64,000 nucleotides of DNA from an uncultured Bacteroidota bacterium (GCA_963779225.1 CAVZWW010000003.1:1010034-1074033), one strand, 5' to 3'. Counted from the first letter of the stretch, positions 1 through 58,794 are shown. The notes: generated by a model from the letters alone, not told the origin. Numbers and translations: made by a program.

Positions 1-1002
1 GTGGATCCTTCCACGCTGCTGGCGCCTGCGGAGAGCAAGCATCAATGGAGCCCCCGTATCGGCGTATCGTTCCCCATCACCGACAAGGGGATCATCCATT
101 TCTCATACGGTCACTTTTTCCAGATGCCGCCCTTCTCCTATCTCTACGCCAACCCGAACTTCAAATACAGCTTCTCCTCGGGGACGCCGACATTCGGGAA
201 TGCGGATCTGCACCCGCAGAGGACCGTCACGTATGAACTGGGTCTGCAGCAGCAGTTGATGGACAATCTTTCCTTCAACCTTACCGGATTCTACAAGGAT
301 GTGCGTGATCTTCTGGCGATGCAGCAGATCCGGATCAGCGGGGATGAAACGTACTACAAATATGTCAACAAAGACTACAGCAACGTCAAGGGGGTGACGT
401 TCTCGCTCACCAAACGGCGGACCGCAAGCGACATCGTTGGCGCCACACTGGACTACACGTACCAATCTGCCGAAGGGAACGAGACAAATGTCAACGCGTT
501 TTTTGTGGATCTCTCTTCCGGGCGACAGAGCGAGAAGGTGCCCGTCTATCTGGACTGGGATCAGTCGCACACCATCAACGGCACCGTGACGGTGGGGCAG
601 CCGAGCGACTGGAATGTCACGCTGGTAGGCCGGATTGGAACGGGGCTTCCCTACACGCCGCAGATCACGGAACAAACCGTCTACCTGCAAACCAACAGCG
701 GGCGCAAACCGCCGCAGACGCGTGTGGATCTGCTGGCCGACAAAACGTTTAACGTCGCAGGGGTGCGTTTGACCGCATACGTCAAGGTGTACAACCTCTT
801 CGACACCTTGAACGAGCGGTACGTCTACGATGATACCGGTCGTGCCACATATACGCTCGTGCAGAATCAGAATACCGCCCAGGAAACAGACAAGCTGGCC
901 ACGGAGATTCCGGGACTTCATCCGGCCAGCGAATGGTTCGTGCGGCCCGATTACTACCAACCCCCGCGGGAAGTGCGGCTTGGCGCCACCGTGGAATTCT
1001 GA
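1..1002 (+). CDS. TonB-dependent receptor (module 1), C-terminal barrel part; 5' end lies outside the window
   Basis: SPRIGVSFPITDKGIIHFSYGHFFQ, GNADLHPQRTVTYELGLQQ, VYNLFD and terminal PREVRLGATVEF beta-signal; closely parallels the intact receptor at 13643-16483. Confidence 0.9.
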   Translation: MDPSTLLAPAESKHQWSPRIGVSFPITDKGIIHFSYGHFFQMPPFSYLYANPNFKYSFSSGTPTFGNADLHPQRTVTYELGLQQQLMDNLSFNLTGFYKDVRDLLAMQQIRISGDETYYKYVNKDYSNVKGVTFSLTKRRTASDIVGATLDYTYQSAEGNETNVNAFFVDLSSGRQSEKVPVYLDWDQSHTINGTVTVGQPSDWNVTLVGRIGTGLPYTPQITEQTVYLQTNSGRKPPQTRVDLLADKTFNVAGVRLTAYVKVYNLFDTLNERYVYDDTGRATYTLVQNQNTAQETDKLATEIPGLHPASEWFVRPDYYQPPREVRLGATVEF

Positions 1003-1034
1003 CGGCAATGAAGAACGAAAAAGAAGAGAGAAGA

Positions 1035-4000
1035 ATGAAGAACAGGCGTAGTGTTCAACGGGTACGGGTTGTCGACGCTCATCGAGTACAGGCCGTCGAT
1101 GCTTCTGGAGTAGGCGTCGCCGACGCTTGCCGGACGCGGGGCATCGGTTCTTGGCGGATAGGGGTTATCCTTCTTCTGGTACTGCTTGCGGCGGGGAGGG
1201 TGGTGGCGGATGGCACCGATGAGAAGACTGCACGGGAACATCAGGCCGTCAAATCGTATATGGCGCGAACGCTGGGGACACCCGCCTATCAGCAGACGGC
1301 ACCTGCACCAACGGACGGGCTATCCAAATCGCGTGCCGGCGCGCTGGCCAAAGATGCCGCGGTAACGGCACAAGCGGACCGGAAGTCGTTCTTCATGAAC
1401 GGGAACCGGATTGCCACCCAGCTGTACAACTACGGCGGCATCGCTCCCGGATACGATGCTCTCCGCGGCGTGAACAATCTTGTCTGGCGCAATCTGGACT
1501 ACGCGTTCCAGTTCTGCCCGATCGTCGGCGCCTCGGTGCCCGATGCGCGTGATCCTTCCCGTCGTATACATATCATTTCGGACGCTCTGTGGGATTATCC
1601 GGCGCTCCGCGAGGTGAACCCCACAGGGGACACACTCTGGCAGTGGCAACCGCTGCCCGGATACGCCGATCCTGACCAGCCCCTCATGGCCTCCAACCCC
1701 GCCGATGACAAGGACGGAGATGGAAAGCCTGACAGCTGGCCGCGGACCTGGTACAACCCCGTCCTGGGCAAATATGTCTGGCCGGGATACCTCTCCCAGG
1801 ATGCGCCGAGTGCGGACCTGGAAGTGTTCTGGTCGATGGATGACCGTTTCAACATGGAGTTTCCGTACTACCCCTTCCCGGGAGATTCCACGCGCAGAGG
1901 AATCGGCCTGCAGGTGGATGGACGTGCGTTCCAGTGGAGCAATGCGCTGGCCGAGAACACCATCTTTTTCGTCTACACCATAACGAATACCAGTGAAAAG
2001 GATCTGGACAGCGTGTTCTTCGGGATCTACGGAGACCCCGATCTGGGCGGTGGAGCGCCCGAAAATACCGACGACAACGGTTTCTTCATCCCTCCGTATG
2101 ATTCCACAGGCCGCCTGGATGAGATTCCCGTGTACTCCCGGAGTCTTGTCTACTTCTGGGATCCTGACATGAAGGGGGCCCGCGGGCTTCCGCTCGGCTA
2201 TCTCGGGTGCAAATTTCTTGAGAGTCCCGGAAATCCGAACGACGGCATCGACAACGATGGAGACGGGATCATCGATGAGCGGCAGGATGACGGTATTGAC
2301 AATGACGGCGACTGGAGTGCGATATCAGATGACGTCGGCATCGACGGCGTCCCGAACACGCAGGATCAGGGGGAGTCGAACGGTGTTCCAGACGCCGGGA
2401 AACGGCTCGCTGACGGTTCACTGGATCCGCTCTATCCCGGCGAACCCAACTTCGAGCTCACCGACCTTGACGAGGCGGATCAGATCGGGCTCACCAGTTT
2501 CAACAGCTGGCCATGGAATTCGGACAAAATTTCCAACGACGAATCCATGTGGAACCGTTCCATTCCGCGGAATTTCGGTGCGATCCAGCAGAGTTCGGAC
2601 ATTGTCTTCATTTTTGGTTCGGGGTACATTTCCCTCAAGAAGGGAGAGACCAAGCGTATCTCCATGGCCCTGTTGCTCGCCGAGGATCTGGACGGGTTGT
2701 TGACGACGGCGAAAACCGTGCAGACGATTTATAACAAGAACTACCAGTTCTTCCGTCCGCCCATTACGCCGCACCTGACGGTGGTGCCGGATGACAAAAA
2801 GGTGACACTCTACTGGGACACCATAGCCGAACAGAGCGTAGACCCCATCACCGGAAAAGACTTCGAAGGGTATGTGATTTACCGCAGCATCGACAATGGT
2901 TTCAATGATGTGCAGACCGTGACCGACGGCAAGGGGGCGCGGTTCCTAACGGAACCCCTCAAGGATCTCGCGGGCCGGGAGGCAAAATTCGATGTCGCCG
3001 TGCGCGAGGAAACGTACACCGACGTGAACGGAAACGGGAAGTACGACTCTGGTGAACCGTTTGTCGATATCAACAAGGACGGACGCTGGTCGGAGGAGGT
3101 CGAGGATCCCTGGAAGGGATATCATCCCATACCATACCAGGACCGCGGCATCCAGTACTACCTGGGCAACAACCGTGGTCTTGTACATTCGTTCGTCGAC
3201 TCCAACAATGTGATCAACGGTCAGACGTACTATTATGCGGTCGTGGCATACGATCACGGCGACTCCGTCGGAATTCCCCCCACGGAGACCACGAAAAAGA
3301 TCACGGTGGATCCCATCACGTCGTTGTTCAACTTCGACGTCAATACCGCCATGGCGATACCGGGGCCGCGTGCAAGCGGTTATGTGCCGCCAATGGATGC
3401 CGATCTGGTCCGCAATCTGACACACGATACGGGCATCGGCACAGGGATTGTCAGCCCCCGGATTCTCAACGACCTGACCGTGCCCCGGGGAGGGGAATAC
3501 CGCATCTCTTTTGCGGATTCCTTCCAGCTCAACGGGAAGAAGGAGAAGGGGAAGAACTACTCCGTGCTGAATACGAATGCCATCACCGAAACCATCGTCG
3601 CGTTCGACACGAATTACTCGGCGCTCGGCCATGAGAATATCGCCGACGGCGAATCTTTCAGTGTGAAAGGACAGGACGGCACGACGTATGTGAACGAGAA
3701 AGACTACGTTGTCAACTATCAACGGGGTTCAGTACGCCGCACGGGCAACAGCGCGATGCCGAACAACGGTACGTTCACGGCCACGTACCGTTACTACCCG
3801 GTGTTCCAGAGCCGCGCACTCAAGAGCCAGGACTCCAATCCTGTTTTCGAAGGAGTCCTCCTGGCCATACAGGATCATCCGGAGTTGGCGTACGATTCAC
3901 TCCGCTCGAAGTGGATCAGCGGAAACTCCAATTTCGTTTATACCGCCCGGCTGACCCAGATCGGGCAACGGCGGAAGCTCTGGCCCGCGGACTATGAAAT

Positions 4001-4706
4001 CCGTTTTTCCGCGCAGAACATCGACACCGCGATGGTGGTGTCGGGGGGGCTGATCAAGATTCCGGTGCGGTATTCGGTAACCGACGTAACGCAGGGTACA
4101 CCATCTCGCATTCTCACGCTGTTGAACGAAAACTCTGCAAGCAGGGACAGGCAGTGGAGTCCCGGCGAGGAGATTGTTCTGTTCCGTCCCGGCTCCACCG
4201 GAGCCACGACGGACACGACCACCTGGGGTGTCATCGTCTCCAAACCCCCGGATACCAGCATAACCCCGCGTGTTCCCACGGATGGAGATGTTCTGCTGAT
4301 CCGGACCCGCCGGCCGTTTGGCACTGACGACGCCTTCACGCTGAAGACCGAAGCCGGAACGATGGATGCCGCCGTTGCGTCTTCGCGCATGGACCAGATA
4401 TACGTTGTTCCCAACCCGTACGTCGGGTACAGCACCATCGAACCGACCAACCGGCTGCCCGGGGCGACACGCGGTGAGCGGAGGATCTATTTTGAGAACC
4501 TCCCGCAGCGCTGCACGATCCGGATCTTCACGATCAACGGCGATCTGGTGCAGACGATCGAACACGACTCCGGTGTGGACAACGCGCGCGAATACTGGAA
4601 CCTCCTCAACCGGGACGGATTCGGCGTCGCGTACGGTGTCTATGTGGCACACCTTGACGCACCGGAGGTGGGGGAAAAGATCTTGAAGTTTGCGCTGATC
4701 AAGTAA
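1035..4706 (+). CDS. Large exported TBDR-partner protein (module 1): Ca-binding DxDxDG loops, FN3-like domain, beta-rich stalk, variant T9SS C-terminal domain
   Basis: ORF 933-4706; start uncertain (ATG 1008 or 1035); hydrophobic signal IGVILLLVLLAAGRVVA; NDGIDNDGDGIID repeats; FN3-like PPITPHLTVVPDDKKVTLYWD..FEGYVIYRS; C-terminus IYVVPNPY..IYFENLPQRCTIRIFTINGDLV..KFALIK. Confidence 0.85.
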   Translation: MKNRRSVQRVRVVDAHRVQAVDASGVGVADACRTRGIGSWRIGVILLLVLLAAGRVVADGTDEKTAREHQAVKSYMARTLGTPAYQQTAPAPTDGLSKSRAGALAKDAAVTAQADRKSFFMNGNRIATQLYNYGGIAPGYDALRGVNNLVWRNLDYAFQFCPIVGASVPDARDPSRRIHIISDALWDYPALREVNPTGDTLWQWQPLPGYADPDQPLMASNPADDKDGDGKPDSWPRTWYNPVLGKYVWPGYLSQDAPSADLEVFWSMDDRFNMEFPYYPFPGDSTRRGIGLQVDGRAFQWSNALAENTIFFVYTITNTSEKDLDSVFFGIYGDPDLGGGAPENTDDNGFFIPPYDSTGRLDEIPVYSRSLVYFWDPDMKGARGLPLGYLGCKFLESPGNPNDGIDNDGDGIIDERQDDGIDNDGDWSAISDDVGIDGVPNTQDQGESNGVPDAGKRLADGSLDPLYPGEPNFELTDLDEADQIGLTSFNSWPWNSDKISNDESMWNRSIPRNFGAIQQSSDIVFIFGSGYISLKKGETKRISMALLLAEDLDGLLTTAKTVQTIYNKNYQFFRPPITPHLTVVPDDKKVTLYWDTIAEQSVDPITGKDFEGYVIYRSIDNGFNDVQTVTDGKGARFLTEPLKDLAGREAKFDVAVREETYTDVNGNGKYDSGEPFVDINKDGRWSEEVEDPWKGYHPIPYQDRGIQYYLGNNRGLVHSFVDSNNVINGQTYYYAVVAYDHGDSVGIPPTETTKKITVDPITSLFNFDVNTAMAIPGPRASGYVPPMDADLVRNLTHDTGIGTGIVSPRILNDLTVPRGGEYRISFADSFQLNGKKEKGKNYSVLNTNAITETIVAFDTNYSALGHENIADGESFSVKGQDGTTYVNEKDYVVNYQRGSVRRTGNSAMPNNGTFTATYRYYPVFQSRALKSQDSNPVFEGVLLAIQDHPELAYDSLRSKWISGNSNFVYTARLTQIGQRRKLWPADYEIRFSAQNIDTAMVVSGGLIKIPVRYSVTDVTQGTPSRILTLLNENSASRDRQWSPGEEIVLFRPGSTGATTDTTTWGVIVSKPPDTSITPRVPTDGDVLLIRTRRPFGTDDAFTLKTEAGTMDAAVASSRMDQIYVVPNPYVGYSTIEPTNRLPGATRGERRIYFENLPQRCTIRIFTINGDLVQTIEHDSGVDNAREYWNLLNRDGFGVAYGVYVAHLDAPEVGEKILKFALIK

Positions 4707-4819
4707 GTGAGCACAGGGGAAGGGGATTGACGATTGACGCCCGGAGAGCTGAAATTGGTGATCGAAAGAGAGAGAACCACACGACGCATGAAACGAGATT
4801 TTCTGTTCATGGAGGATGT

Positions 4820-5881
4820 ATGAGAATCCCAAACCAGAGAAGGCATATTGCGATGATGCCCGCCGGACCGGGGACGAAGATGGTGATGCTGGTTATGCTG
4901 CTGTTTCTGGCGGCCCCGATGGTGCTGCCGCAGAATCTCACGAAAACCGGAACGTCTGCGGCCCCATTTCTCAAGATCGGCGTCGGCTCCCGCGCCCTGG
5001 GTATGGGCGGTGCATTTACCGCAACGGCCGATGACATCACCGCCATGTACTGGAATCCCGGCGGTCTTGCCCGCCTGTACTCCCGCGAGGCCGTGTTCAA
5101 CCATGTCCGGTGGTTCGCTGACGTGAATTACGACTTTGCCGCGTTCGCCACATACCTCCCCGGATTCGGAACGCTGGGGGCATTTGTGGATGTTCTCTCG
5201 ATGGATGACATGTTCGTGCGCACGGTTGAACAGCCGGAAGGGACCGGAGAGTTCTTCAACGCGGGTGCCATGGCCATCGGCCTCAGTTACGGGCGGGATC
5301 TGACGGACCAGTTCTCGATAGGGTTCAACGTGAAGTACCTCCGCGAGTATATCTGGAACATGGCCGCAACAGGTGTGGCGATGGACATCGGTACGATTTA
5401 CCGCATTCCCATTCTGAACGAGTTCCGGCTCGGCGCAAGCATCTCGAATTTCGGGACAAAGATGCGTCTGGAGGGGCGCGACAACCTGATGATTACCCAG
5501 ATCGGCGGTACGGAAGGGAATCTGATCAATACCGATGTCCAGCTGGATGAGTTTGACCTTCCTCTCCTGTTTCGCGTGGGCGTTGCCGCGGACGTGCTGA
5601 AAGCCGAAGAAACACGCCTGACCGTTGCGCTGGACGCGATCCATCCCAATGACAATACCGAGTATCTGAATACGGGCCTGGAGTTCGCCTGGAACGAGAT
5701 CGTGTTTCTCCGGGGAGGTTGGAAATCCCTCTTCGAACGGGATACCGAGCAGGGATTCACCGCGGGCGTTGGCCTGAACTACCGCATCCTGGGCGAGTTT
5801 ATGGTGAAGCTGGACTATGCCTACCAGGATTGGGGACGGTTGAAGAACGTGCACTATCTGACGTTCGGATTGAAATTCTGA
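4820..5881 (+). CDS. PorV/PorQ (UPF0164) family outer-membrane beta-barrel (module 1)
   Basis: GGAGGA SD at 4811-4816; KTGTSAAPFLKIGVGSRALGMGGA, YWNPGGLA and terminal YLTFGLKF are typical of the FadL-like PorV family. Confidence 0.85.
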   Translation: MRIPNQRRHIAMMPAGPGTKMVMLVMLLFLAAPMVLPQNLTKTGTSAAPFLKIGVGSRALGMGGAFTATADDITAMYWNPGGLARLYSREAVFNHVRWFADVNYDFAAFATYLPGFGTLGAFVDVLSMDDMFVRTVEQPEGTGEFFNAGAMAIGLSYGRDLTDQFSIGFNVKYLREYIWNMAATGVAMDIGTIYRIPILNEFRLGASISNFGTKMRLEGRDNLMITQIGGTEGNLINTDVQLDEFDLPLLFRVGVAADVLKAEETRLTVALDAIHPNDNTEYLNTGLEFAWNEIVFLRGGWKSLFERDTEQGFTAGVGLNYRILGEFMVKLDYAYQDWGRLKNVHYLTFGLKF

Positions 5882-5910
5882 CGGGCGGGACAGTATACCG
5901 GAGGTGCCTC

Positions 5911-6531
5911 ATGACTCAACGTTCTCTGCCACTCTTCTTTCTTCTCCTCATGCTGCCTGTCTTCTCGCGGTCGCAGACCGCAAGCGACGAGCTGGTGAAC
6001 GTGAAGGAGCTCATCCCCGATATTGCCATCGACCTCAAGTACAACACCGTCGACAACTTCCTGCATCAAAAAATGTACACGACGGACGAATGCCTGCTGG
6101 CGATGGGAACGGTGAAGCAATTGAAGAAGGTCCAGGATTCCCTCCGTACACTCGGTCTCGGACTGAAGATCTTTGACGGTTACAGGCCGCGGGCAGTGCA
6201 GTACCTCATGTTCGAGATCTTTCCGAACCCGGTCTACGTGGCCGACCCCGCCACGGGCTCGAACCACAACCGGGGTGGTGCAGTGGACCTGACGCTGGTG
6301 AACCTCGCGACCGGTCAGGAATTGCAGATGCCCACCGCGTTCGACTATTTCGGGAATGAAGCATCACATGGATGGACCATCGGCTTGAACCAGGAACAGA
6401 TCAACAACCGCGTCTTCCTGCTCACCATGATGGAAACAGTGGGCGGGTTTACACGATACGATGCCGAGTGGTGGCACTACGCATACTCACCGTCGCTGGC
6501 GAACCCGCTGCTGGATTTTCAAATGAAGTGA
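5911..6531 (+). CDS. D-Ala-D-Ala dipeptidase (peptidase M15D, VanX/DdpX family) with signal peptide
   Basis: FDGYRP, SNHNRGGAVDLTL (SxHxxGxAxD Zn motif), MPTAFD and EWWH; GGAGG SD; N-terminal MTQRSLPLFFLLLMLPVFSRSQ. Confidence 0.9.
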   Translation: MTQRSLPLFFLLLMLPVFSRSQTASDELVNVKELIPDIAIDLKYNTVDNFLHQKMYTTDECLLAMGTVKQLKKVQDSLRTLGLGLKIFDGYRPRAVQYLMFEIFPNPVYVADPATGSNHNRGGAVDLTLVNLATGQELQMPTAFDYFGNEASHGWTIGLNQEQINNRVFLLTMMETVGGFTRYDAEWWHYAYSPSLANPLLDFQMK

Positions 6532-6646
6532 CACGCGCAGCGGAGCGCTAAATGGGGAGGCCTGAATGATACATCCCCTGGGTCCGGACCGATGTCCGGC
6601 AACTTCGTGACTCCGCCGGCGGTCCATGAAATACGAAAGTTCCCCT

Positions 6647-10075: not shown

Positions 10076-10119
10076 ACGACCTCCAGAGGGATCCGTCACG
10101 ATCTTCGTTAGTGTTTCTC

Positions 10120-13614: not shown

Positions 13615-13642
13615 ACACAATCCCATCGGTTGAGTGAAATGT

Positions 13643-16633: not shown

Positions 16634-16791
16634 GCTGTGGCTTGATTATTTCCGTTAAGTTGTTAATTTCGTATACTGGTATTAGGGCAATTCTCACACC
16701 TGACAGGTCCGTCGGTTTGGACATGTTTCCGGGCCTGCTTTGCCCGGCACGCGATAATGATTCTATCACTCACAGACGTTCGGGAGGAGCA

Positions 16792-38336: not shown

Positions 38337-38445
38337 CATCGGGCTTTTCCGCGCCCGGGCGCAACAAGCGCGGATGGATGTTCCCTATGTGGGCCCCGTA
38401 TCTTTGCGCAAAGAGGACAACGCGCCACCCCAACAAGGTATTCCC

Positions 38446-43717: not shown

Positions 43718-43721
43718 GACC

Positions 43722-47143: not shown

Positions 47144-47210
47144 TGTGGAACGGCGAAGTCCAATCCACAAGACGTTTCATCTCTTGCAGAAACACCAAGG
47201 CACAAGGAAA

Positions 47211-49590: not shown

Positions 49591-49600
49591 GGATAATGGC

Positions 49601-50890
49601 ATGGCGTTAAGCAAACCGGCAACCCGCAACCCCTGGGCATGGGTCTCCACGCTCTATTTCGCTCAGGGCATACCGTACGTGGTGGTGATGACCGTGTCAG
49701 TGATCATGTACAAGCGATTGGGCATTTCGAACACGGACATTGCTCTGTACACAAGCTGGCTGTACCTGCCCTGGGTGATCAAACCTCTCTGGAGTCCGTT
49801 TATTGAACTGTTCCGGACAAAACGGTTCTGGATTGTCTCGCTGCAGTTGATCATCGGCGCATCTCTCGCCGCGGTCGCGCTGACCGTTCCAATGCCATCC
49901 TTTTTCCAGTATACGCTGGCGATCTTCTGGCTGATGGCGTTCAGTTCAGCCACACACGATATCGCCGCAGATGGCTTCTACATGCTCGGACTGGAACAGC
50001 ACCAGCAGGCGGCGTTTGTGGGGGTGCGCAGCACGTTCTACCGGATCGCCATGATCACCGGTCAGGGTCTGCTCGTCGTCGTGGCCGGCACACTGGAAAC
50101 CAACCTGGACGGGAAAATCGCGCTGGCCTGGTCCATTACCTTCGGTATTCTTGCCGCGCTCTTCCTGGTCTTTTTCGTCTATCACCGTTTCATTTTACCC
50201 TATCCGGTGGCTGATAAAACCGCCGGGCGTGGTGGTGTGGAGAGCCCCTTTGCGGCCTTCCTCAATATTTTCGTCCTCTTCTTCAAGAAGAAGAACATTC
50301 TTGCCATAATCGCCTTTCTGCTGCTGTATCGTTTTGCCGAGGCACAACTGGTGAAGCTGGTATCGCCGTTTCTTCTGGATGCGCGCGGCGCTGGAGGGCT
50401 CGGACTCTCGACAAGTGAGGTGGGGATTGTCTACGGAACAGTAGGGATTATCGCGCTGACGCTGGGCGGTTTGCTCGGAGGGTATGTGGTCTCCCGTCAG
50501 GGGCTCCGGTTCTGGCTCTGGTTCATGGTGATCATCATCCATTTCCCCGATCTGACATTTGTGTATCTGTCGCAGGTACAGCCCGACAATTTCTACCTGA
50601 TCAACGCGGCTGTGGCGCTGGAACAGTTCGGGTACGGGTTCGGCTTCACCGCATACATGCTTTTCATGATTCTTGTATCCGAAGGCGAACATAAGACGGC
50701 CCACTATGCAATCTGCACCGGCTTCATGGCTCTCGGTATGATGATACCGGGAATGTTCAGTGGAGCCCTGCAGGAGTGGATCGGCTACAAGAGCTTCTTT
50801 ATCTGGGTGATTCTCTCCACAATCCCCGGGTTCCTGGTTGCGGCGCTGGTGAAAATCCCGCCGGATTTCGGGAAAAAGGCACAGGCCTGA
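49601..50890 (+). CDS. ampG: AmpG family muropeptide MFS permease
   Basis: LYFAQGIPY, LPWVIKPLWSPF, SATHDIAADGFY and GYGFGFTAY; about 12 TM segments; GAGGA SD. Confidence 0.88.
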   Translation: MALSKPATRNPWAWVSTLYFAQGIPYVVVMTVSVIMYKRLGISNTDIALYTSWLYLPWVIKPLWSPFIELFRTKRFWIVSLQLIIGASLAAVALTVPMPSFFQYTLAIFWLMAFSSATHDIAADGFYMLGLEQHQQAAFVGVRSTFYRIAMITGQGLLVVVAGTLETNLDGKIALAWSITFGILAALFLVFFVYHRFILPYPVADKTAGRGGVESPFAAFLNIFVLFFKKKNILAIIAFLLLYRFAEAQLVKLVSPFLLDARGAGGLGLSTSEVGIVYGTVGIIALTLGGLLGGYVVSRQGLRFWLWFMVIIIHFPDLTFVYLSQVQPDNFYLINAAVALEQFGYGFGFTAYMLFMILVSEGEHKTAHYAICTGFMALGMMIPGMFSGALQEWIGYKSFFIWVILSTIPGFLVAALVKIPPDFGKKAQA

Positions 50891-50921: not shown

Positions 50922-52391
50922 ATGAAACCGATCACCGCATTCCTGCCTTACACGGGCGAGCCGTTCACACGCGAGACGGTTGAATTCCTCCGCAAATCCG
51001 GACTGGTGGAACGTGTTGTTCTGCTTGCCGTTGGCGAGGATCTTCCGAATATCGAAGGATGTCTCTCCGTGCCGGTTGCCTCCCTGCACGGGAGCAAGAC
51101 TATGGCCGTGCTGGCCAAACAGACGAAGACCCCGTATGCTCTCCTGTTGTTGCACGATACGCAAATCGACTTCGGCCAGTTCGGCATCGAACGGTTTCTC
51201 CGTGTTGCAGAGGAAACAGGGGCCGGGATGGTTTTTGCCGACTATTTCGACATGAAAGAAGGCAAGCGGACTCCGCACCCCGTCATCGAATATCAGTCTG
51301 GTAGCCTGCGTGACGATTTCAATTTTGGTTCGGTGGTGCTGCTCCGGAGCGCGGGGGTAAAACGGGCGGCAGCTGATCTGAAGGGAGGAAAACTGGTATT
51401 TGCAGGATGGTACGCTCTCCGCCTTGCGCTCTCCCGCCGGGCGCCGCTGGTACGTGTCGGCGAATTCCTCTATAGTAAGGTCGAAAGCGACGTGCGCAAG
51501 TCGGGCGAAAGACTCTTCGATTACGTTGATCCGAAAAACCGCCAGGTGCAGATCGAAATGGAGCGGGCGGTGACCGGGCATTTGAAAAAGATCGGTGCGT
51601 ACCTCAAACCCGGGTTCGCAAAGATCAAGCTGGACGAAGGGGAGTTTCCGGTCGAGGCGTCGGTGATCATTCCCGTGAAGAACCGCACGAAGACCGTCGG
51701 CGAGGCTGTGGAGTCGGTTCTGAAACAACAGACAACATTTCCGTTTAACGTCATTGTCGTGGACAACCATTCGACGGATGGGACCACGGACGTTCTGCGC
51801 GCTCTTGCCGCGCGCGATTCCCGTGTTCTGCACGTCATTCCCGAACGCCTGGACCTGGGCATCGGGGGGTGCTGGAACGAAGGGGCGCATCACGGGCGGT
51901 GCGGCCGTTTTGCGGTTCAGCTCGATTCTGACGATCTGTACAAAGACGGCACCACGCTCCAGCGTGTCGTGGACACATTCAAAAGGGAACGGTGTGCGAT
52001 GGTGATCGGGAGCTACCAGATGACCAACTTCGCGCTTGAACCGATCCCCCCCGGTGTGATCGAGCATCGCGAGTGGACCCCTGCGAACGGCCGGAACAAT
52101 GCCCTGCGCATCAATGGCCTGGGTGCCCCCCGGGCGTTCTACACACCGGTCCTGCGGAAAATCAAGATTCCGAATGTCAGCTACGGTGAAGATTACGCGC
52201 TGGGCCTGGCAATTTCACGGGAGTTTCAGATCGGCAGGATCTATGAACCGATCTACCTCTGCCGCCGCTGGGAAGGAAATTCGGATGCAGATCTGGATGT
52301 GAACAGGTTAAACGGGTTCAACTTCTACAAGGACAAGATCCGGACATTCGAGGTGATGGCGCGGATCAAGAAGAACCGGACGGCACGCTAG
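50922..52391 (+). CDS. Glycosyltransferase family 2 protein (two GT-A-like halves)
   Basis: [27 protein letters not shown] (DxD) and SYGEDY; N-terminal half looks like a degenerate GT-A domain. Confidence 0.85.
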
Positions 52392-52433: not shown

Positions 52434-53438
52434 ATGCTTGAACAATTGATGCTCTCTCCTGATGTGCTTGCGTCCCGGACAGGCGGCCCCGGCATTGCGC
52501 AGCTGAGCCGGGCGTTGCTGGATCAACAAAAGGAGACCTGGGAGTTGCTGCGCAACGGATACCGGAGTCTGGAAACCGTGCGTACGCGGGAGTTTGGCTT
52601 TGACGACGCACGCATCCTGATTCAGTACAACCCCGGCCGGATAGCATCGTCTTCTGCAAAAGTGGACGACAAGTCCATCAAAGAACGGAAGTGCTTTCTC
52701 TGTGTGCAGCATCTTCCCCCCGATCAGCGTGGCCTTGCCTATGGTGACGGGTACGTAATTCTGTGTAACCCCTTTCCCATCACCCCCGAACATTTCACCA
52801 TTCCGCGGATAGCGCACGTTCCACAGCGCATCGAGGGGACACTTGATGTATTGCTGGATCTTGCCCGGGATATGAGCCCGCTCTATTCTATCTTCTACAA
52901 CGGTCCCAGGTGCGGCGCATCGGCTCCTGATCATATGCACTTTCAAGCCGGAACGCATGGATTTATGCCGATTGATGCCGAATTTCCCCGCCTGAGCGAA
53001 CTCTTCGGAACCGTTATCATCTCTCAGGAAGGATATCGTGCTGTTGCGGTGAGCGGTCCTCTCAGGCGTTTTCTGGCGCTGGAAGGGAGTCGCCGGGATC
53101 TGATTGCAGACGGGTTTGCGCGCTATCTCGGGGTCTTGAGGGAGAAAACCGGAGAGCCGGATGAACCGATGGTCAACGTGCTGGGATCATATCAGGATGG
53201 AGAGTGGCGGATCCTGGTCTTTCCCCGCACACGGCACCGTCCGTCATTCTTCTTTGCGGAAGGAGAAAAACGTCTCTTGATCAGTCCCGCGGCGGTGGAT
53301 GTCGGCGGCGTCAGTGTCACACCCCTCGAGGAGGACTTCAAAAAGATCACCCGGGAGCACATCCTCCAGATGTTCGAGGAGGTGACGCTCGGACGGGATG
53401 CGTTCCGGCAGGGTGTGGAGGACTGGGCGGAGGGGTAG
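52434..53438 (+). CDS. DUF4922 family protein (HIT-like nucleotidyltransferase/phosphorylase fold)
   Basis: QYNPGRI.SS.AK, CFLC, LCNPFPI..EHFTI, YNGPRCGASAPDHMHFQ (HxHxQ) and ISPAAVD. Confidence 0.82.
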   Translation: MLEQLMLSPDVLASRTGGPGIAQLSRALLDQQKETWELLRNGYRSLETVRTREFGFDDARILIQYNPGRIASSSAKVDDKSIKERKCFLCVQHLPPDQRGLAYGDGYVILCNPFPITPEHFTIPRIAHVPQRIEGTLDVLLDLARDMSPLYSIFYNGPRCGASAPDHMHFQAGTHGFMPIDAEFPRLSELFGTVIISQEGYRAVAVSGPLRRFLALEGSRRDLIADGFARYLGVLREKTGEPDEPMVNVLGSYQDGEWRILVFPRTRHRPSFFFAEGEKRLLISPAAVDVGGVSVTPLEEDFKKITREHILQMFEEVTLGRDAFRQGVEDWAEG

Positions 53439-53453
53439 CTTCTTCCCGGGCCG

Positions 53454-54692
53454 TTAGTACAGCAGATATTTCTTTGATCTCGCCTTGAACTCCCCGGTTC
53501 CCCCTTCCAGCAAGTCCTTCACATCATCATAGCGCATCCGTGCGGTAAATGCCGTGCGCACTTTGTCCGTTCCGGCCACTTTGTCAAACATCTTTATCCT
53601 GGAACCGTCCGCGAGTGTAAAGGGGTTCTTTTCCGGATACAACTGATTGTGCACCTCAAGGAATCGGAACTGGACGCTGATCAGGTTGACGATGCCCGGG
53701 TCGATAATGTGGACCTGAACGCCCTGCAGTGTCTTTCCGGTGGATCTGCCGTAGAAGGGTTTTAGTGTGATCGGACGGAAAATCAGTCCGGGCATCTTCA
53801 ATGCATTCATCTGTGCTGCAAGGGCCGCGCCGTTGATCCATTCCGCTGCAAGGAGTTGGAAGGGGAGTGTGTATCCGACCCCCTCCGAAATCACCCCCAA
53901 CTCGCCGAGAATCCCCGTGCTCACATAGTACAGGGGGGAGTAGGCGTGGGGGATATGGGGCGACGAGGGCACCCATGGCAATCCGGTTTCGACGAACGTC
54001 ATCGATCGTTTCCACCCCTTCATGGGAACCACCGTCAGGCTACACCGGACGCCGCCGGAGAGCATTCCCTCATCGTTCAGCATGCGCGCGAGTTCGCCGC
54101 ATGTCAGACCGTACACATACGGGATCGGAAACTGACTCACGAAAGAGAAGAATCCCTTTTCGACACTGTTCCCTTCAACCCGGTTTCCGCCGAGCGGGTT
54201 CGGCCGGTCGAGCACCACAAACGGAATTCCCTGTGTTGCCGCTGCCTCCATTGCCAGACCCATGGTGCTGATATAGGTATAGGAACGGCACCCGATATCC
54301 TGGATATCGTAGACGAGAACGTCAACCCCTTTGAGCATGTCGGGTGTGGGCTTCCGGGTCTTGCCATAAAGGGAGTAGACCGGGAGTTTGGTCTGGGGAT
54401 CGGTATAGAAGTCGACGATGTCGCCGGCGGCATAATCGCCGCGAACACCGTGTTCGGGGCCATAGAGAGCGACCAGCGAGAAATCCTTTGCGGCAAACAG
54501 AATATCGATCGTGGCCCGTAATTGCCTGTCGACCCCGGTGGGGTTGGTGATCAGGCCCACCCGCTTGCCCCGGAGGAGATCAAACGATCGGTCCCGGAGG
54601 ACTTCGATGCCGGTCTGTACCTCAGGAGAACCGGCCAATGCAGTTGCGAAAACCACGATGGAAAGAACGCCGATGGTCAATGTGCGGTTCAT
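53454..54692 (-). CDS. namZ: Exo-beta-N-acetylmuramidase NamZ family (DUF1343)
   Basis: RVGLITNPTG, GPEHGVRG, VYSLYG, DIQDIGCRSYTY, LDRPNP, GLTCGELA and WVPSSPHIP; signal peptide. Confidence 0.9.
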   Translation of the reverse strand: MNRTLTIGVLSIVVFATALAGSPEVQTGIEVLRDRSFDLLRGKRVGLITNPTGVDRQLRATIDILFAAKDFSLVALYGPEHGVRGDYAAGDIVDFYTDPQTKLPVYSLYGKTRKPTPDMLKGVDVLVYDIQDIGCRSYTYISTMGLAMEAAATQGIPFVVLDRPNPLGGNRVEGNSVEKGFFSFVSQFPIPYVYGLTCGELARMLNDEGMLSGGVRCSLTVVPMKGWKRSMTFVETGLPWVPSSPHIPHAYSPLYYVSTGILGELGVISEGVGYTLPFQLLAAEWINGAALAAQMNALKMPGLIFRPITLKPFYGRSTGKTLQGVQVHIIDPGIVNLISVQFRFLEVHNQLYPEKNPFTLADGSRIKMFDKVAGTDKVRTAFTARMRYDDVKDLLEGGTGEFKARSKKYLLY

Positions 54693-54825: not shown

Positions 54826-54854
54826 TTGATAGTCTACTCCTCATTCGGTACATT
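54826..54854 (+). promoter_or_regulatory. Candidate sigma70 promoter for the kinase-GH3 operon (TTGATA-N17-TACATT)
   Basis: TTGATA at 54826-54831, 17-nt spacer, TACATT at 54849-54854, in the divergent gap. Confidence 0.5.
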
Positions 54855-54903
54855 GAAAAAACTCGTTGCATCACTCATTCATTGCATGCAGACCGTCGGA
54901 AGC

Positions 54904-55845
54904 ATGAGCACAGCACGAAGACTTGTCCTGGGAGCCGATGGCGGAGGCACGAAAACACTTGGGATCCTCGCCGCTGAAGATGGTACCGAACTCAGCCGTT
55001 TACAGGTAGGGCCGGGAAACCCCAATGTTGCAGGAGTCGAGGGTGCGGCCGGAAATCTCCTGGATCTTATTGCGGGTTGTTGTGAACGCGCGGGATCTAC
55101 TCCCACGGAAGTGCATTCGATAGTGTTCGGCCTGGCGGGAGTGGGAAGCCAGACGGTTCGCTCCAGACTCGCCGATGCGCTGCGTGCTGAGTCGGCGATC
55201 CGTGGTATGCGGGAGCTTCCCATCACACTGGAAACGGATTCGCGCATCGCGCTCGAAGGGGCATTTGCCGGAGGCCCCGGAGTGGTGATGATCGCCGGCA
55301 CCGGCTCAAACCTTATCGGCAAGCTTCCTGACGGCACGGTACGATCTGTCGGTGGGTGGGGGAGGGTGTTGGGCGATGAAGGGAGCGGATACTTCATCGG
55401 TCTGGAGGCGACGAAAGCCGTTTCCCGCGACATGGACGGTCGTGAAGATGCAACCGTTCTACGGAAGGTTCTTGCCGAAGCAACCGGGTGGAACTCCCGT
55501 GACAGGGTGATTGCCGCGGTCTATCAGGACAAATTCGATCTTGCCTCCCTTGCCCCCCTTGTCCTGAAGGTTGCCGGGGAGAACGATCCGGCCGCACTGG
55601 CCATCCTGCGCCGGGCGGCATCACACATGGTCGATCAACTGAAGGCGATGGCCCTTGCCATGGGTTCCCAGTCAAATATAGGTGTGGTCTTCGTTGGTGG
55701 GCTGATCGATCACGATACCGTGTATGCGCGTCTGTTGCGGGAAACGATAGCAGAGATCATCCCTTCGGTACGGGTGCATACGGCACTTCATCCGCCTGTC
55801 CGCGGTGCCGTCCTCATGGCACTTTCCCAACTGCAAAGGAATTAA
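54904..55845 (+). CDS. BadF/BadG/BcrA/BcrD-family sugar kinase, MurK-like (GlcNAc/MurNAc kinase)
   Basis: LGADGGGTKT, FGLAG, IAGTGS and GGWGRVLGDEGSGY; PG-recycling context. Confidence 0.85.
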   Translation: MSTARRLVLGADGGGTKTLGILAAEDGTELSRLQVGPGNPNVAGVEGAAGNLLDLIAGCCERAGSTPTEVHSIVFGLAGVGSQTVRSRLADALRAESAIRGMRELPITLETDSRIALEGAFAGGPGVVMIAGTGSNLIGKLPDGTVRSVGGWGRVLGDEGSGYFIGLEATKAVSRDMDGREDATVLRKVLAEATGWNSRDRVIAAVYQDKFDLASLAPLVLKVAGENDPAALAILRRAASHMVDQLKAMALAMGSQSNIGVVFVGGLIDHDTVYARLLRETIAEIIPSVRVHTALHPPVRGAVLMALSQLQRN

Positions 55846-58794
55846 ATGTCTTCAAGAATACGTCATCTGTCTCTGTTGTGCATATCTTCCCTCGCGTTAC
55901 TGGGACTGGCCTGTGGACCCTGGACGCTGACTCCAGTGCAAGAGCCCTCCCGGGCGCCGGTTCCCGTCATGGCTGCCGGTCATGACGGATGGGTCGACAG
56001 TGTGCTGACAACGATGTCGGATGAAGAGAAGGTCGGCCAGCTGGTCATGGTAGGCCTCTATGGTCAGTACTACAGTACGCAGACAGACGAACACGCCCGT
56101 CTCGTGCACCTGATTCGCGACCATCACATCGGCGGCTTCATACTCTGGCAGGGCGATGTCTTTGAATCCGCCGTACGCCTGAATTCCCTGCAGGGGCTTT
56201 CACGTCTGCCGTTGCTTGTGAGCGGAGACTACGAGAGAGGTCTGCCGATGCGAACCCGGCGCGGGACTCCCTTCCCGGACGCAATGGCGCTGGGTGCCAC
56301 GCGGAACCCGCGGTATGCGTATGAAGTGGGGCGGGCGATCGCACGCGAAGCCCGCGCCATCGGGGTCCATCAGAACTATGCCCCTGTGGCCGATGTGAAC
56401 ACCAACCCGATGAACCCCGTCATCAATACCCGGTCTTTCGGTGAGGATGTCCGGCTCGTTCAGGAAATGGTGGGCGCATTCGTGAAGGGAACCCTGGACG
56501 GGGGTGCTCTTCCAACAGCAAAACATTTCCCGGGCCACGGGGATACGGGGGTCGATTCCCATCTTGACCTTCCGGTGTTGCAGTACACGCGCGATCGCCT
56601 GGATTCTGTTGAACTTGCGCCCTTCCGCTCCGCGATTGATGCGGGAACTCCTTCGATAATGATTGCACACATTGCTGTGCCCGTCTTCGACCCCGACCGA
56701 TCGGTTCCCTCGTCGCTTTCGACAGCGGCCATCGGCACGGTGCTGCATGACCAGCTGGGGTTTGATGGGCTGGTGGTGACCGACGCCATGGACATGCGGG
56801 GGGTCACGCGGGATTTTTCGCCCGGGCAATCCACGGTGATGGCGGTGAAGGCGGGTGTCGATATCGTTCTCATGCCCCCCGATGAGGATGCGGCGTTTGA
56901 TGCCCTGGTGGCCGCTGTTCGCTCCGGGGAGATCAGTCATGCACGGCTGGATGTTTCCGTACGCAAGGTTCTTACGGTAAAACAGAGGCTCGGACTCGAC
57001 ACACTCCGCACGGTGGATATTGACCGTATCCCTGAAGTTGTCGGGAGCAGGGACCATCGTTTGCTGGCCCGTGAGGTGGCGCGGACCGCCATAACGGTTC
57101 TCAAGAACATGAACGGGGTGTTCCCACTTGCCGACGGCAATGGTCACAGGGTGGTCTCCATTGTCCTGAGTGATTCGCAGGATAGCCGTGTTGATATCAA
57201 CCGGGCGGGCAGCCCATGGCCGTGCGAGCCTCCGGGAGCGTACTTCCACCAACAGCTCCAACGGCGTGTCGGCCGTTTTGAGACATACCGCCTCTCTCCC
57301 TCCAGCAATACCATGGATATTGAAGCGGCAGTTGAACGGATGAAAAAGGCGGATCTTGTATTCTTTCCTGTCTATCTGAAAGTGCGCACGTCGTCCGGGC
57401 GCATCGGCATGCCCCCTGCATTTCTCTCCATTCTGAAAGCGGCGGAATCGGTCCGGGGGACGGTGGTGGCCGTCCTGTTCGGGAATCCGTATCTGGCTGC
57501 ACATTTCCCGGGGGCAAAGGGAGTGTTGTGCGCGTATGGGGACAGCGAGCCCCAGGTGGAAGCAGCGGTGGAAGCTCTCTTTGGAGAGATCGGAGTGTGC
57601 GGAAAGCTGCCCGTCACCATTGCCGGGACCTTTCCCTTCGGCAGCGGCCTCGTCTGTCCCGCGGACCGTTTACGCCGGGAGGATCCCGCCGCGGCGGGTT
57701 TCGTGCCTGAGAAGCTTGCCGAACTGGACGGAATCATCACCGCGGCGATCCGGGATTCCGCGTTTCCCGCCGCACAACTCCTGGTACTCAAAGATGGAAT
57801 GATTGCGTACAACGCTGCGTTCGGTACGTACACGTACGACCCGATTTCGGGCCCCATCGACAATGCCTCCCTGTTTGATCTGGCGTCGGTGAGCAAAGTC
57901 ATCGGCACCACGACGGCCGTGATGGAGCTTATTGATGCGGGTAAACTCTCACTGGACGATTATGCGTCGAAATACCTTCCCCACCTGGCGGCGGGAAGTA
58001 AGGCGAAAATCACCATCAGACATCTGCTGACGCACAGGGCGGGGTTCCCGCCTTTCAAGCGGTTCTTCCTGATGTGCGGCAGCGCGGCTGAAGCGCTGGA
58101 TTCCGTGTATGCGACCGAATTGGTTGCGGAGCCGGGAGACACAACCATTTACAGCGACATCGGAATGATCACGCTGGGAAAGATCGTGGAGAAGATTGCG
58201 GGGATGTCGCAGGCCACTCTGCTGGCGAATGATTTTTTTGGTCCTCTGGGGATGAAGAACACCATGTACAATCCACCCCGGGTGTTGTGGGAGCGTGTCG
58301 TGCCGACGGAGATCGATACCGTCTGGCGCAAGGCTCTTGTCCGCGGCATTGTGCACGATGAAAATGCGGCGCTGCTGGGTGGTGTTGCGGGACATGCGGG
58401 CCTGTTTTCGACGGCCTCCGATCTGGCCATTTATGTGCAGATGCTCCTTAACCACGGAACCTATGGTGGTGTCCGGTATCTCGCCGAAAGCACGGTCGTG
58501 GAATTCACCGGTGCGCATAGGGAGGGCCAGGACAGGTATCTGGGTTGGGACATGAAGTCGCCCGTAGGTTCCTCTGCAGGGACCCTCTTTTCTCCATCGT
58601 CATTCGGTCACACAGGATTCACCGGTACATCTATCTGGGTGGATCCGGAGAGGAAACTGGGCGTGATTCTGCTGACAAACAGGGTACACCCTACGCGGGC
58701 CAACCAGAAAATCTCGCGTGTTCGTCCGGCAGTCCACGATGCGGTGGTCCGGGCGCTGGCAGAAGACTCGATGCAGAGCTCAAGAGGGGGGTAA
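55846..58794 (+). CDS. Lipoprotein: GH3 beta-N-acetylglucosaminidase (NagZ-type) fused to a beta-lactamase-fold serine hydrolase (AmiE-like)
   Basis: Lipobox LGLA-C; DYERG, APVADVN, RSFG, KHFPGHGDT..DSH (NagZ motif) and VTDAMDM; C-terminal domain FDLASVSK, LLTH, YSD and GHTGFTGT. Confidence 0.9.
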   Translation: MSSRIRHLSLLCISSLALLGLACGPWTLTPVQEPSRAPVPVMAAGHDGWVDSVLTTMSDEEKVGQLVMVGLYGQYYSTQTDEHARLVHLIRDHHIGGFILWQGDVFESAVRLNSLQGLSRLPLLVSGDYERGLPMRTRRGTPFPDAMALGATRNPRYAYEVGRAIAREARAIGVHQNYAPVADVNTNPMNPVINTRSFGEDVRLVQEMVGAFVKGTLDGGALPTAKHFPGHGDTGVDSHLDLPVLQYTRDRLDSVELAPFRSAIDAGTPSIMIAHIAVPVFDPDRSVPSSLSTAAIGTVLHDQLGFDGLVVTDAMDMRGVTRDFSPGQSTVMAVKAGVDIVLMPPDEDAAFDALVAAVRSGEISHARLDVSVRKVLTVKQRLGLDTLRTVDIDRIPEVVGSRDHRLLAREVARTAITVLKNMNGVFPLADGNGHRVVSIVLSDSQDSRVDINRAGSPWPCEPPGAYFHQQLQRRVGRFETYRLSPSSNTMDIEAAVERMKKADLVFFPVYLKVRTSSGRIGMPPAFLSILKAAESVRGTVVAVLFGNPYLAAHFPGAKGVLCAYGDSEPQVEAAVEALFGEIGVCGKLPVTIAGTFPFGSGLVCPADRLRREDPAAAGFVPEKLAELDGIITAAIRDSAFPAAQLLVLKDGMIAYNAAFGTYTYDPISGPIDNASLFDLASVSKVIGTTTAVMELIDAGKLSLDDYASKYLPHLAAGSKAKITIRHLLTHRAGFPPFKRFFLMCGSAAEALDSVYATELVAEPGDTTIYSDIGMITLGKIVEKIAGMSQATLLANDFFGPLGMKNTMYNPPRVLWERVVPTEIDTVWRKALVRGIVHDENAALLGGVAGHAGLFSTASDLAIYVQMLLNHGTYGGVRYLAESTVVEFTGAHREGQDRYLGWDMKSPVGSSAGTLFSPSSFGHTGFTGTSIWVDPERKLGVILLTNRVHPTRANQKISRVRPAVHDAVVRALAEDSMQSSRGG

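Follow-up and report, generated by a model that had tools for sequence, protein, structure and literature searches.

The first 58,794 positions of a 64,000-nucleotide stretch of DNA from an uncultured Bacteroidota bacterium (GCA_963779225.1, CAVZWW010000003.1:1010034-1074033; the whole stretch is called the window) hold a composite locus that probably serves the scavenging of exogenous peptidoglycan (PG), a function deduced throughout from gene families, sorting signals and conserved gene order. The window (C3:1010034-1074033, G+C ~58%) belongs to a genome, G000, of 5.3 Mb in 3 contigs, whose completeness is rated 100%. Positions 1-33245 carry three triads, each made up, in this order, of a TonB-dependent receptor (TBDR), a secreted protein whose end resembles the C-terminal domain (CTD) of type IX secretion system (T9SS) cargo, and an outer-membrane barrel of the PorV/PorQ family. 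Grouped around the triads are genes for an M15 D-Ala-D-Ala dipeptidase, for several propeller-CTD proteins and for a divergent M23-like protein with a CTD. The PG genes are densely packed in the 25.5 kb of positions 33300-58794, here called the PG block. A Pfam scan covered 40 open reading frames (ORFs), 36 of them within 1-58794, and NCBIfam models were run on most of the 40; in these searches nearly all items of the inventory compiled by a first-pass annotation were found where it had placed them, including the three TBDRs, which Pfam confirms, while the names given to transport and catabolic proteins stay below curated cut-offs. Fifteen proteins of the locus were tested, 12 from the PG block among them; 10 of the 15 have no second copy in the genome at E ≤ 1e-10 and at least 40% coverage, and because these single-copy genes of a 5.3-Mb genome meet within a locus whose PG block measures only 25.5 kb, the clustering is real and far from chance.

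The third receptor module (coordinates are those of the window, on the plus strand unless stated otherwise) begins with a TBDR of 1060 amino acids (aa; 23945..27127) that contains CarbopepD_reg and Plug domains. It is followed by a protein designated u705 (27188..29297), which combines a sugar-binding-type β-supersandwich with FN3 and CTD regions and is split in the window into ORFs of 398 and 341 aa (u398 and u341), and by a PorV/PorQ-family barrel (29315..30325; NF033709, 193 bits), the predicted tether of the u705 CTD. Next come a lipoprotein with an IPT/TIG domain (PF01833) and an NHL-type propeller (30366..31568; lipobox ...VFGGC), which falls into atlas clusters with TIG and NHL/SGL domains, and a β-propeller T9SS cargo protein of 480 aa (31803..33245; PF18962 44.6 bits, model pLDDT 84). 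For the latter, a structure search returned generic propeller matches only, from which no function was drawn. With confidence falling a little short of even, we propose that Ignavibacteria, Rhodothermales and Calditrichia share an importer class so far undescribed, in which a TBDR operates with a T9SS-exported partner held by its uncleaved CTD on a dedicated PorV/PorQ-like barrel and without SusD, and that the member accompanied by a Cwp19-like GHL10 enzyme may be the missing outer-membrane gate for PG glycan strands.

The first-pass annotation had described the locus as built without SusC/SusD, and this statement holds. The SusD models PF07980, PF14322 and PF12771 gave 0 matches each in the 100%-complete genome, the Bacteroides thetaiotaomicron control being positive each time. 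Against the SusC/RagA model TIGR04056 the TBDRs score 56-83 bits over the N-terminal part only, far below the cut-off of 368, and on this score their membership in the SusC-like receptors was rejected. The three barrels pass the PorV/PorQ family model NF033709 with 193-217 bits (cut-off 90) and fail the PorV and PorQ equivalogs NF033710/NF033711 with 74-89 bits (cut-offs 250/220). A tblastn survey located 20 PorV-like regions in the genome, 13 of which belong to triads with the TBDR, the CTD-like protein and the barrel on one strand; the triad looks like a general receptor design of the lineage rather than one specific to PG.

A structural model of u705, calculated from an intact ortholog of 73-78% identity with a 19-row alignment, reached a predicted local distance difference test (pLDDT) of 74.4 and a predicted TM score (pTM) of 0.75. 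In a domain-level VIA search, residues 40-528 match N-domains of the carbohydrate-binding supersandwich type from GH94, GH15 and GH65-type enzymes as well as galactose mutarotase-like proteins with Z 17-18, for example 8rf9_A (Z 18.2, root-mean-square deviation (rmsd) 3.1, 249 aligned) and 5nz7_A (Z 18.2, rmsd 3.8, 274 aligned). Foldseek with the whole model yielded low TM scores only (0.10-0.25), PorZ (5m11) being listed for the FN3 and CTD part. The module-3 barrel together with the C-terminal 302 residues of u705 gave a complex model with a score of 0.91, the best of 3 controls reaching 0.08; the 0.91 mark is attained by 58 of 80 solved complexes and by 2 of 110 mismatched pairs. The three complex runs share at least 98% of contacts with a partner pLDDT of at least 83, and the interface is formed by CTD residues 207-302. 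In the PorZ-PorQ and PorU-PorV pairs an uncleaved CTD binds its cognate PorV-like barrel, as given in passages of PMC10202324. In the lineages with such triads, the binding partner of the receptor would be tethered by a T9SS-type CTD-barrel pair in place of a lipid anchor.

Whether the receptors remain beside the PG enzymes in other genomes was a check set beforehand, and the modules did not prove to be unlinked from them. In G018, a member of the same family from a different genus, the whole locus is collinear over ~50 kb. Forward synteny started from 79 loci with GHL10 orthologs (42-94% identity), 38 of which have at least 8 kb on both sides. Among these 38 well-flanked loci, 24 hold at least four of the six module-3 genes (TBDR1060, u398, u341, barrel, TIG, propeller) and 14 at least one gene of the PG block. 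Carriers are found in the Ignavibacteria, the Rhodothermales/Rhodothermaceae, the Calditrichales/Calditrichia and in Stygiobacter, with a rearranged gene order: in Rhodothermales GHL10 and the operon are transcribed divergently, and in Stygiobacter GHL10 is located upstream of the operon. In 6 loci of the Ignavibacteriaceae type, the glycosyltransferase gene of the AmpG operon (GT2_489) lies directly upstream of the module-3 TBDR, and triads of the module-1/2 type stand beside GHL10 in five loci (L054, L062, L071, L081, L088). In the reverse direction, among 301 genomes sampled from the phylum a u705 profile had matches in 72, two large families giving 0 of 63 and 0 of 22. In a set of 40 u705 loci from 40 genomes, all 40 have the barrel, 39 the TBDR (adjoining u705), 37 the TIG lipoprotein, 32 the propeller and 23 GHL10, and 27 contain at least one PG gene; the u705 loci of family f31 additionally contain NagX, NamZ and the kinase, and the five lowest-scoring loci, probably paralogs, lack GHL10. 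By gene order, the link between module 3 and the PG enzymes appears strong, frequent and not universal, and the comparison supports a conserved functional neighborhood that unites the PG enzymes with one TBDR module or more.

The first enzyme of the PG block is a glycan-cleaving GHL10 protein of 820 aa with a CTD (33300..35762; PF02638 228 bits, cut-off 27.9, and PF18962). Its catalytic domain (residues 17-366) matches Clostridioides difficile Cwp19 (PDB 5oq2) with E 2.7e-89; by their titles, Cwp19 is a PG lytic transglycosylase (PMC6016235) and DigH of E. coli a second PG-acting member of GHL10 (PMC12288456). Two further GHL10 paralogs of this genome, G000:C1:210941-213349 (44% identity) and C3:705341-706777 (38%), are solitary, having neither receptor nor PG neighbors, and may represent the cell's own DigH-type enzymes. 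GHL10 is followed by an SH3 and NlpC/P60 peptidase with a signal peptide (35909..37153; SH3_16 and NLPC_P60), which shares the domain architecture of the dipeptidyl-peptidase VI (DPP VI)/YkfC type and matches the Bacteroides enzyme in PDB 3npf (E 3e-78) and 3pvq (E 3.8e-76). The adjoining enolase-superfamily protein (37134..38336; MR_MLE_C 122.7 bits) is a dipeptide or N-acyl amino-acid epimerase, whose best NCBIfam match is DgcA (1.3e-62, 212 bits, cut-off 400), with L-Ala-D/L-Glu epimerase at 1.1e-42 (146 bits, cut-off 343). Its twin-arginine translocation (TAT) signal (TIGR01409 25.5 bits, cut-off 16.7) predicts a periplasmic location for this Ala-Glu-type epimerase. The corresponding epimerases of E. 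coli and B. subtilis are cytoplasmic.

The block continues with a NagX-like membrane glucosamine N-acetyltransferase (38374..39597; NF046061 207.7 bits, cut-off 480), a periplasmic class-A β-lactamase-fold (SxxK) protein of 574 aa (39617..41341; PF13354, Beta-lactamase2, 180 bits; PDB 4ewf 1.3e-26), and a cytoplasmic NagB-like protein of 785 aa (41360..43717; PRK02122 193 bits, cut-off 384; PDB NagB 8.6e-17), whose extra C-terminal half of 385 aa matches no Pfam family. A PD40/TolB-like propeller with a signal peptide (43722..44639; PF07676, TolB 8.9e-14) precedes a protein with Amidase_3, Ig domains and a CTD, which occupies three ORFs in the window (44636..47143); the intact G018 ortholog shows Amidase_3 (67 bits), Big_5 and the CTD. 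A second Amidase_3 protein of 630 aa (47145..49037; PF01520 126.9 bits) has no counterpart at the same place in the relative G017, and elsewhere in the genome a separate, higher-scoring Amidase_3 (173 bits) can, as far as its sequence tells, serve cell division or housekeeping. The remaining genes comprise the sole AmpG-family permease of the genome, a member of the major facilitator superfamily (49469..50890; best match TIGR00901, 173.5 bits, E 5e-51, cut-off 350), a GT2 glycosyltransferase-like protein (50922..52391; PF00535 81.5 bits), the N-terminal half of which (243 aa) has no Pfam family, and a DUF4922 protein (52434..53438; PF16269 196.8 bits). GT2 and DUF4922 accompany AmpG here and in relatives. 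On the minus strand follows NamZ, a protein of the exo-β-N-acetylmuramidase family with a signal peptide (53454..54692), in which both domains of the NamZ/GH171 family are present (PF07075 284 bits, PF20732 128 bits); its paralogs elsewhere in the genome likewise have no locus-like neighbors. A BadF/BadG-family sugar kinase of the NagK/MurK-like type (54826..55845; PF01869 143 bits; NagK_SO3507 110 bits, cut-off 370) and a NagZ-type GH3 domain fused to a β-lactamase-fold domain (55846..58794; PF00933 286 bits and PF00144 213 bits), a probable lipoprotein by its N-terminal ...LLGLACG, complete the block. RmNag3 of Rhodothermus marinus has the same fusion and is presented, in passages of PMC6987092, as a β-N-acetylglucosaminidase tied to PG turnover. 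MurQ (375 bits) is encoded ~510 kb away.

Ten CTD proteins had been counted in the first-pass annotation. Seven of them pass PF18962 or TIGR04183; the other three (the 1257-aa and 1168-aa partner proteins and u341) have only a divergent CTD-like end. CTDs occur on three PG hydrolases, GHL10, the M23-like protein and the amidase-Ig protein (for the latter, in the intact G018 ortholog), and the genome encodes a T9SS, with sprA (SprA_N 205.6 bits) and a true PorV (123 bits). Because of these CTDs and the T9SS genes, the three hydrolases should, on the sequence evidence, act outside the cell, at its surface or in the medium. NamZ, the GH3 fusion, the NlpC/P60 peptidase, the M15 dipeptidase, the class-A-fold protein, the PD40 propeller and the 630-aa amidase bear signal peptides or lipoboxes and are therefore predicted to be periplasmic. 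Signals are absent from the NagB-like protein, GT2, DUF4922 and the kinase.

These assignments can be arranged into a putative pathway. Judging from the sorting signals, the T9SS would export GHL10, the Amidase_3-Ig protein and the M23-like protein, by which stem peptides would be stripped from foreign sacculi or debris and the glycan would be cut. At the surface, as conserved gene order, fold and the complex model suggest, u705, the TIG-propeller lipoprotein and the propeller-CTD protein might catch the fragments, the CTD of u705 staying on its dedicated PorV/PorQ-family barrel, and the module-3 TBDR would draw them into the periplasm. There, according to family assignments, NamZ, the GH3 fusion, the second Amidase_3, the DPP VI-type NlpC/P60 peptidase, the M15 and SxxK proteins and the TAT-dependent epimerase could yield N-acetylglucosamine (GlcNAc)-N-acetylmuramic acid (MurNAc), amino sugars and small peptides. 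AmpG and NagX would carry the products over the inner membrane, and the kinase, the NagB-like protein and MurQ would feed central metabolism.

The main rival to exogenous scavenging, which we regard as unlikely, takes the PG block as the machinery for normal turnover of the cell's own wall, with the TBDR modules merely adjacent. It draws on the 630-aa Amidase_3, which shows a weak AMIN-type match (E 2.2e-4) as in septal amidases, on the R. marinus GH3-β-lactamase fusion, which passages of PMC6987092 read as PG turnover, and on the fact that for AmpG, NagX, the NagB-like protein, the kinase and the NlpC/P60 peptidase the genome has no gene outside the locus. Since AmpG, NagX and the NagB-like protein have their only copies here, the inner, periplasmic and cytoplasmic half could equally serve self-recycling, and it may well function in both processes. 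However, own-wall recycling as in the E. coli pathway requires neither an outer-membrane importer nor exported hydrolases. The exported CTD hydrolases (GHL10, amidase-Ig, M23-like) and the conserved receptor linkage are left unexplained by it. GHL10 stays beside a TBDR module across phyla despite rearrangements, the separate Amidase_3 elsewhere scores higher, and the DPP VI-type peptidase and the epimerase, to judge from their families, would form a catabolic route for stem peptides rather than one for re-use. The placement of receptors next to PG genes might also reflect descent only, modules 1, 2 and perhaps 3 being generic nutrient receptors without functional meaning for the locus. The 13 triads in the genome, a module-1/2 partner family that recurs in the relatives with many paralogs, and a module 2 without PG genes in the relative G038 would fit such a view, which is nevertheless the remotest of those considered; module 3 and GHL10 stay neighbors in distant lineages (42-55% protein identity) even where the genes are inverted or reordered, and because of these rearrangements descent alone is unlikely for module 3. 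The five recurrences of module-1/2-type triads by GHL10 and the GT2_489 gene abutting the module-3 TBDR in 6 loci speak against it as well.

Two further explanations concern the substrate and the purpose of the exported enzymes. NagX and NagK_SO3507 are families of the Shewanella-type GlcNAc pathway, a GH20 hexosaminidase is encoded just upstream of the window, and TBDRs of Caulobacter and Xanthomonas import GlcNAc or chitooligosaccharides (PMC13046382 and PMC4173781), so that a locus for chitin or general GlcNAc glycans, with the PG-type enzymes secondary, has to be weighed. It is very improbable: the Pfam scan of 40 ORFs turned up no chitinase of family GH18 or GH19, the genome encodes MurQ, and several families of the locus are PG-specific, namely those of NamZ, the two Amidase_3 proteins, the NlpC/P60 peptidase of the DPP VI type, the D-Ala-D-Ala dipeptidase, the Ala-Glu-type epimerase and the Cwp19-like GHL10. 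Highly improbable, too, is a weapon for antagonism or predation, whose secreted enzymes would mainly lyse live competitors with uptake as a by-product. The exported M23-like, amidase and glycan-cleaving proteins, all three with CTDs, would resemble bacteriolytic sets; yet the partners of GHL10 in its conserved unit are a receptor and binding proteins rather than toxins or immunity genes, and a full catabolic route is encoded in the same locus. Characterized GHL10 relatives act, by the titles of the respective papers, on peptide-free glycan or at autolysis, which would suit them better to debris than to intact walls. This explanation overlaps with scavenging and does not exclude it.

Scavenging of exogenous PG is a reading of function that comparative genomics largely bears out, and several observations weigh against it. 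Among the 38 well-flanked GHL10 loci, 9 have neither module nor PG genes, and 13 of the 40 u705 loci are without a PG gene, some of these being cut by contig ends. The relative G038, which belongs to another family, has module 2 with its propeller gene on a contig of 36.9 kb that carries no PG genes, and the partner family of modules 1 and 2 is multi-copy and general, occurring in 39 of 41 related genomes and with 23 matches in the genome itself. AmpG, NagX, the NagB-like protein and the BadF-type kinase are best matches that stay under the NCBIfam curated equivalog cut-offs, and these four, together with GT2, DUF4922 and the NlpC/P60 peptidase, are single-copy in the genome. In the model search no NagA passed its cut-off anywhere in the genome, so that the deacetylation step has no assigned enzyme. 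No regulator family was encountered among the 36 ORFs scanned in 1-58794, the small ORFs and the upstream region being covered only partly, and no hybrid two-component system (HTCS), SusR or extracytoplasmic function (ECF) regulator was seen at the locus. The pass of the u705-barrel complex may stem from its likeness to solved PorV-CTD-type complexes rather than from binding of the pair itself. Finally, there are three frame changes in two genes, near 28291-28447 in u705 and near 44967-44974 and 45740-45800 in the amidase-Ig gene; if real, they would mark a partly decayed copy in this strain. The u705 gene is one ORF (~700 aa) in 24 of 31 loci of relatives and in G018, where the amidase-Ig region, 44636-47143, is likewise one open frame of up to 916 aa. 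A read check of the stretch 27000-36000, based on patchy, small-share contigs of four DNA runs, provided one short-read contig of run X2 (depth 2.1) that lacks the base at 28291, inside the frame-change zone of u705. This is a faint hint at an assembly error or a strain variant, and the three breaks may be assembly errors or real decay.

Modules 1 and 2 are two further receptor triads of the module-3 design, with stem peptides or muropeptides perhaps as cargo; by gene order, they appear to be tied to PG recurrently but loosely. In G017, the PG block comes right after module 2, with module 3 missing and module 1 at a distance of ~54 kb. The module-1 TBDR is represented in the window by its C-terminal part (1..1002; PF00593 89.5 bits), the full gene of 920 aa with CarbopepD_reg, Plug and barrel starting upstream at G000:C3:1008273, so that the locus extends beyond the left border. 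Its partner is a secreted protein of 1257 aa with a CTD-like end (933..4706; C-terminus ...KILKFALIK), which has no Pfam family, matches the PorZ C-terminus weakly (E 8.9e-4) and is a paralog of the 1168-aa protein of module 2. The barrel (4727..5881; NF033709 216.6 bits, cut-off 90) is followed by the M15 D-Ala-D-Ala dipeptidase (5719..6531; PF01427 117 bits; PRK10178 158.8 bits, cut-off 176), with a likely start near 5908 and a signal peptide in its N-terminus MTQRSLPLFFLLLMLPVFSRSQ, and by a T9SS cargo protein of 767 aa (6626..8929; PF18962 35.5 bits, and GH43 26 bits, below cut-off). A sequence search of the PDB gave no match for the 767-aa or the 501-aa CTD protein.

Module 2 is encoded on the minus strand and consists of the barrel (9008..10123; NF033709 208 bits), the secreted partner of 1168 aa with a signal peptide and a CTD-like end (10120..13626; C-terminus ...KIGRLALIK), and a TBDR of 946 aa (13643..16483) with CarbopepD_reg_2, Plug and barrel (TIGR04056 83 bits, cut-off 368). 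Divergent from it is the gene of an NHL-type propeller T9SS cargo protein of 544 aa (16642..18276; PF18962), which matches 'Pizza' NHL propellers and is kept next to module 2 in G022, G017, G038 and G011; a paralogous propeller cargo protein of 484 aa (18555..20009; PF18962 45.8 bits) matches the same targets. The ORF 20011-20343 (110 aa) is probably not a gene; it belongs to no family, and its translation is rich in arginine and of low complexity. The protein of 807 aa with a CTD (20340..22763) that had been called M23 contains the zinc motifs HxxxD (HNGVD at residue 92) and HxH (HTH at 174), but it reaches only 21.7 bits with PF01551 (cut-off 28.7) over the first half of the model; its PDB match is 9gy1 (M23, E 3e-4). 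It is best termed a divergent M23-like peptidase.

Among known systems, the operon Tanf_08345-08385 of Tannerella forsythia (gtf, gtf, lytB, ampG, ybbC/namZ1, murT, murK, murQ), as laid out in passages of PMC5388701 and the preprint 10.1101/2021.12.02.470905, resembles the segment 49469-55845; compared by gene annotation, AmpG, GT2, DUF4922, NamZ and the BadF-type kinase stand against AmpG, two gtf, NamZ and a kinase. In the Tannerella model, NamZ1 acts in the periplasm on exogenous glycan strands free of peptides, and AmpG takes up the products; in the text of that preprint 'outer membrane' and 'TonB' occur 0 times each, and neither an outer-membrane importer nor an exported hydrolase is named. 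While T. forsythia is a MurNAc auxotroph that salvages, the added DPP VI, epimerase and NagB-type genes point to catabolism here; MurT is absent, MurQ is remote, and three TBDR modules and CTD-bearing hydrolases are attached. The murQRP-amiE-nagZ-namZ cluster of Bacillus subtilis (Fig. 1 legend of the same preprint; PMC8054146) likewise employs NagZ, an amidase and NamZ outside the cytoplasmic membrane, before uptake and the MurQ step. On the other hand, that organism is Gram-positive, has no outer membrane and takes up the products by a phosphotransferase system, whereas the NagZ-type GH3 of the window is fused to a β-lactamase-fold domain, a candidate AmiE-like domain according to the first-pass annotation.

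With SusC/SusD polysaccharide utilization loci (PULs) the locus has in common a TBDR with an N-terminal carboxypeptidase-regulatory-like domain, surface binding proteins including the TIG lipoprotein, exported enzymes that cleave glycans, exo-enzymes in the periplasm and a permease of the inner membrane. It differs in that the genome has no SusD and in that the receptor is followed by a CTD protein and then by a PorV/PorQ-family barrel. A susCDE operon is reported for Melioribacter roseus of the Ignavibacteria group in passages of PMC3534657. SusD-less use of GlcNAc-containing molecules is exemplified by the GlcNAc system of Xanthomonas campestris, one of the carbohydrate utilization systems containing TonB-dependent transporters (CUT systems; TBDTs), with the TBDTs NixA-D; according to passages of PMC4173781, NixC is proposed for PG degradation products, with AmpG in the pathway. 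As in CUT systems, TBDTs are clustered here with >10 hydrolases and with inner-membrane transporters (three TBDRs, AmpG, NagX). The Xanthomonas system, in contrast, is proteobacterial, dispersed and regulon-based, is without T9SS or a barrel-tethered partner, and has indirect PG evidence concerning its own muropeptides. As to the PorZ-PorQ and PorU-PorV pairs, the barrels of the locus pass the family model, the C-termini of the partners weakly match that of PorZ, and the complex model sets the CTD on the barrel. Unlike those pairs, however, the pair is encoded directly after a TBDR, 13 times, and the tethered u705 has a sugar-binding-type fold rather than a PorZ/PorU function. Cwp19 and DigH belong to the same catalytic family as the GHL10 of the window. 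By the titles and opening abstract lines, Cwp19 is a Gram-positive cell-wall protein and the target of DigH is septal glycan of the cell itself, whereas the enzyme of the window combines a T9SS CTD with a receptor operon.

The first-pass annotation was not aware of any such locus described in this lineage. In open-access papers and bioRxiv no description of a PG locus of this kind or of the TBDR-CTD-barrel triad was found, but non-Sus TBDR loci (Xanthomonas) and a Tannerella-like AmpG core are already known. Passages of an anammox paper (PMC5460018) and of a bloom paper (PMC10877868) mention no locus of this kind. Two papers, on the Mariana Trench and on activated sludge, cover, in their respective passages, PG as a nutrient or outer-membrane carbohydrate-active enzymes (CAZymes) of Ignavibacteria: PG is recognized as a deep-sea nutrient in PMC11044484, and neither the passages of this paper nor those of the activated-sludge paper PMC11495043 describe such a gene cluster, although the supplementary tables of both may list related genes. 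We rate the locus as a combination, in variant form, of elements known before, namely PG scavenging operons, SusD-less TBDR loci and T9SS attachment pairs. In the same sense, the earlier suggestion that it is the equivalent of a PUL for foreign cell walls is upheld in part. The PG genes and module 3 are linked and the hydrolases bear CTDs, but modules 1 and 2 are multi-copy and loosely tied, and the inner part could also act in self-recycling.

Sediments, soils and sludge contain much organic carbon and nitrogen in the form of PG, and both the consumers of PG and the way polymeric fragments cross the outer membrane are poorly defined. For this crossing, a step left unnamed in the Tannerella model, the locus offers a candidate gate. 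The architecture suggests that in lineages without SusD the principle of T9SS attachment is put to new use in assembling capture complexes at the surface, which would widen the concept of the PUL, and, if the proposal is true, the importer class would make dead bacterial walls a defined and trackable substrate niche for Ignavibacteria, Rhodothermales and Calditrichia. The marker set of TBDR, u705, barrel, TIG lipoprotein, propeller and GHL10 can be searched for in metagenomes and put to the test in cultured relatives.

Concerning the surroundings of the locus, the region to the left of the window (L138, G000:C3:992001-1011100) encodes, in this order, an α-2-macroglobulin (1547 aa), a LiaF-like protein, the GH20 hexosaminidase (minus strand), a sodium/solute symporter family (SSF) protein, two FG-GAP CTD proteins and the module-1 receptor. 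A scan of 47000-59800 for promoters and terminators was not enriched over shuffled sequences (2 found versus 5.3 expected, and 5 versus 10.7). The right edge (59649-64000) contains a GH97 gene on the minus strand and a tRNA gene (61812-61884), the single hit of an Rfam scan, followed by genes for a DUF932 protein and a response regulator. The G+C content falls to 0.53 there, and this edge may represent a mobile element integrated at the tRNA gene.

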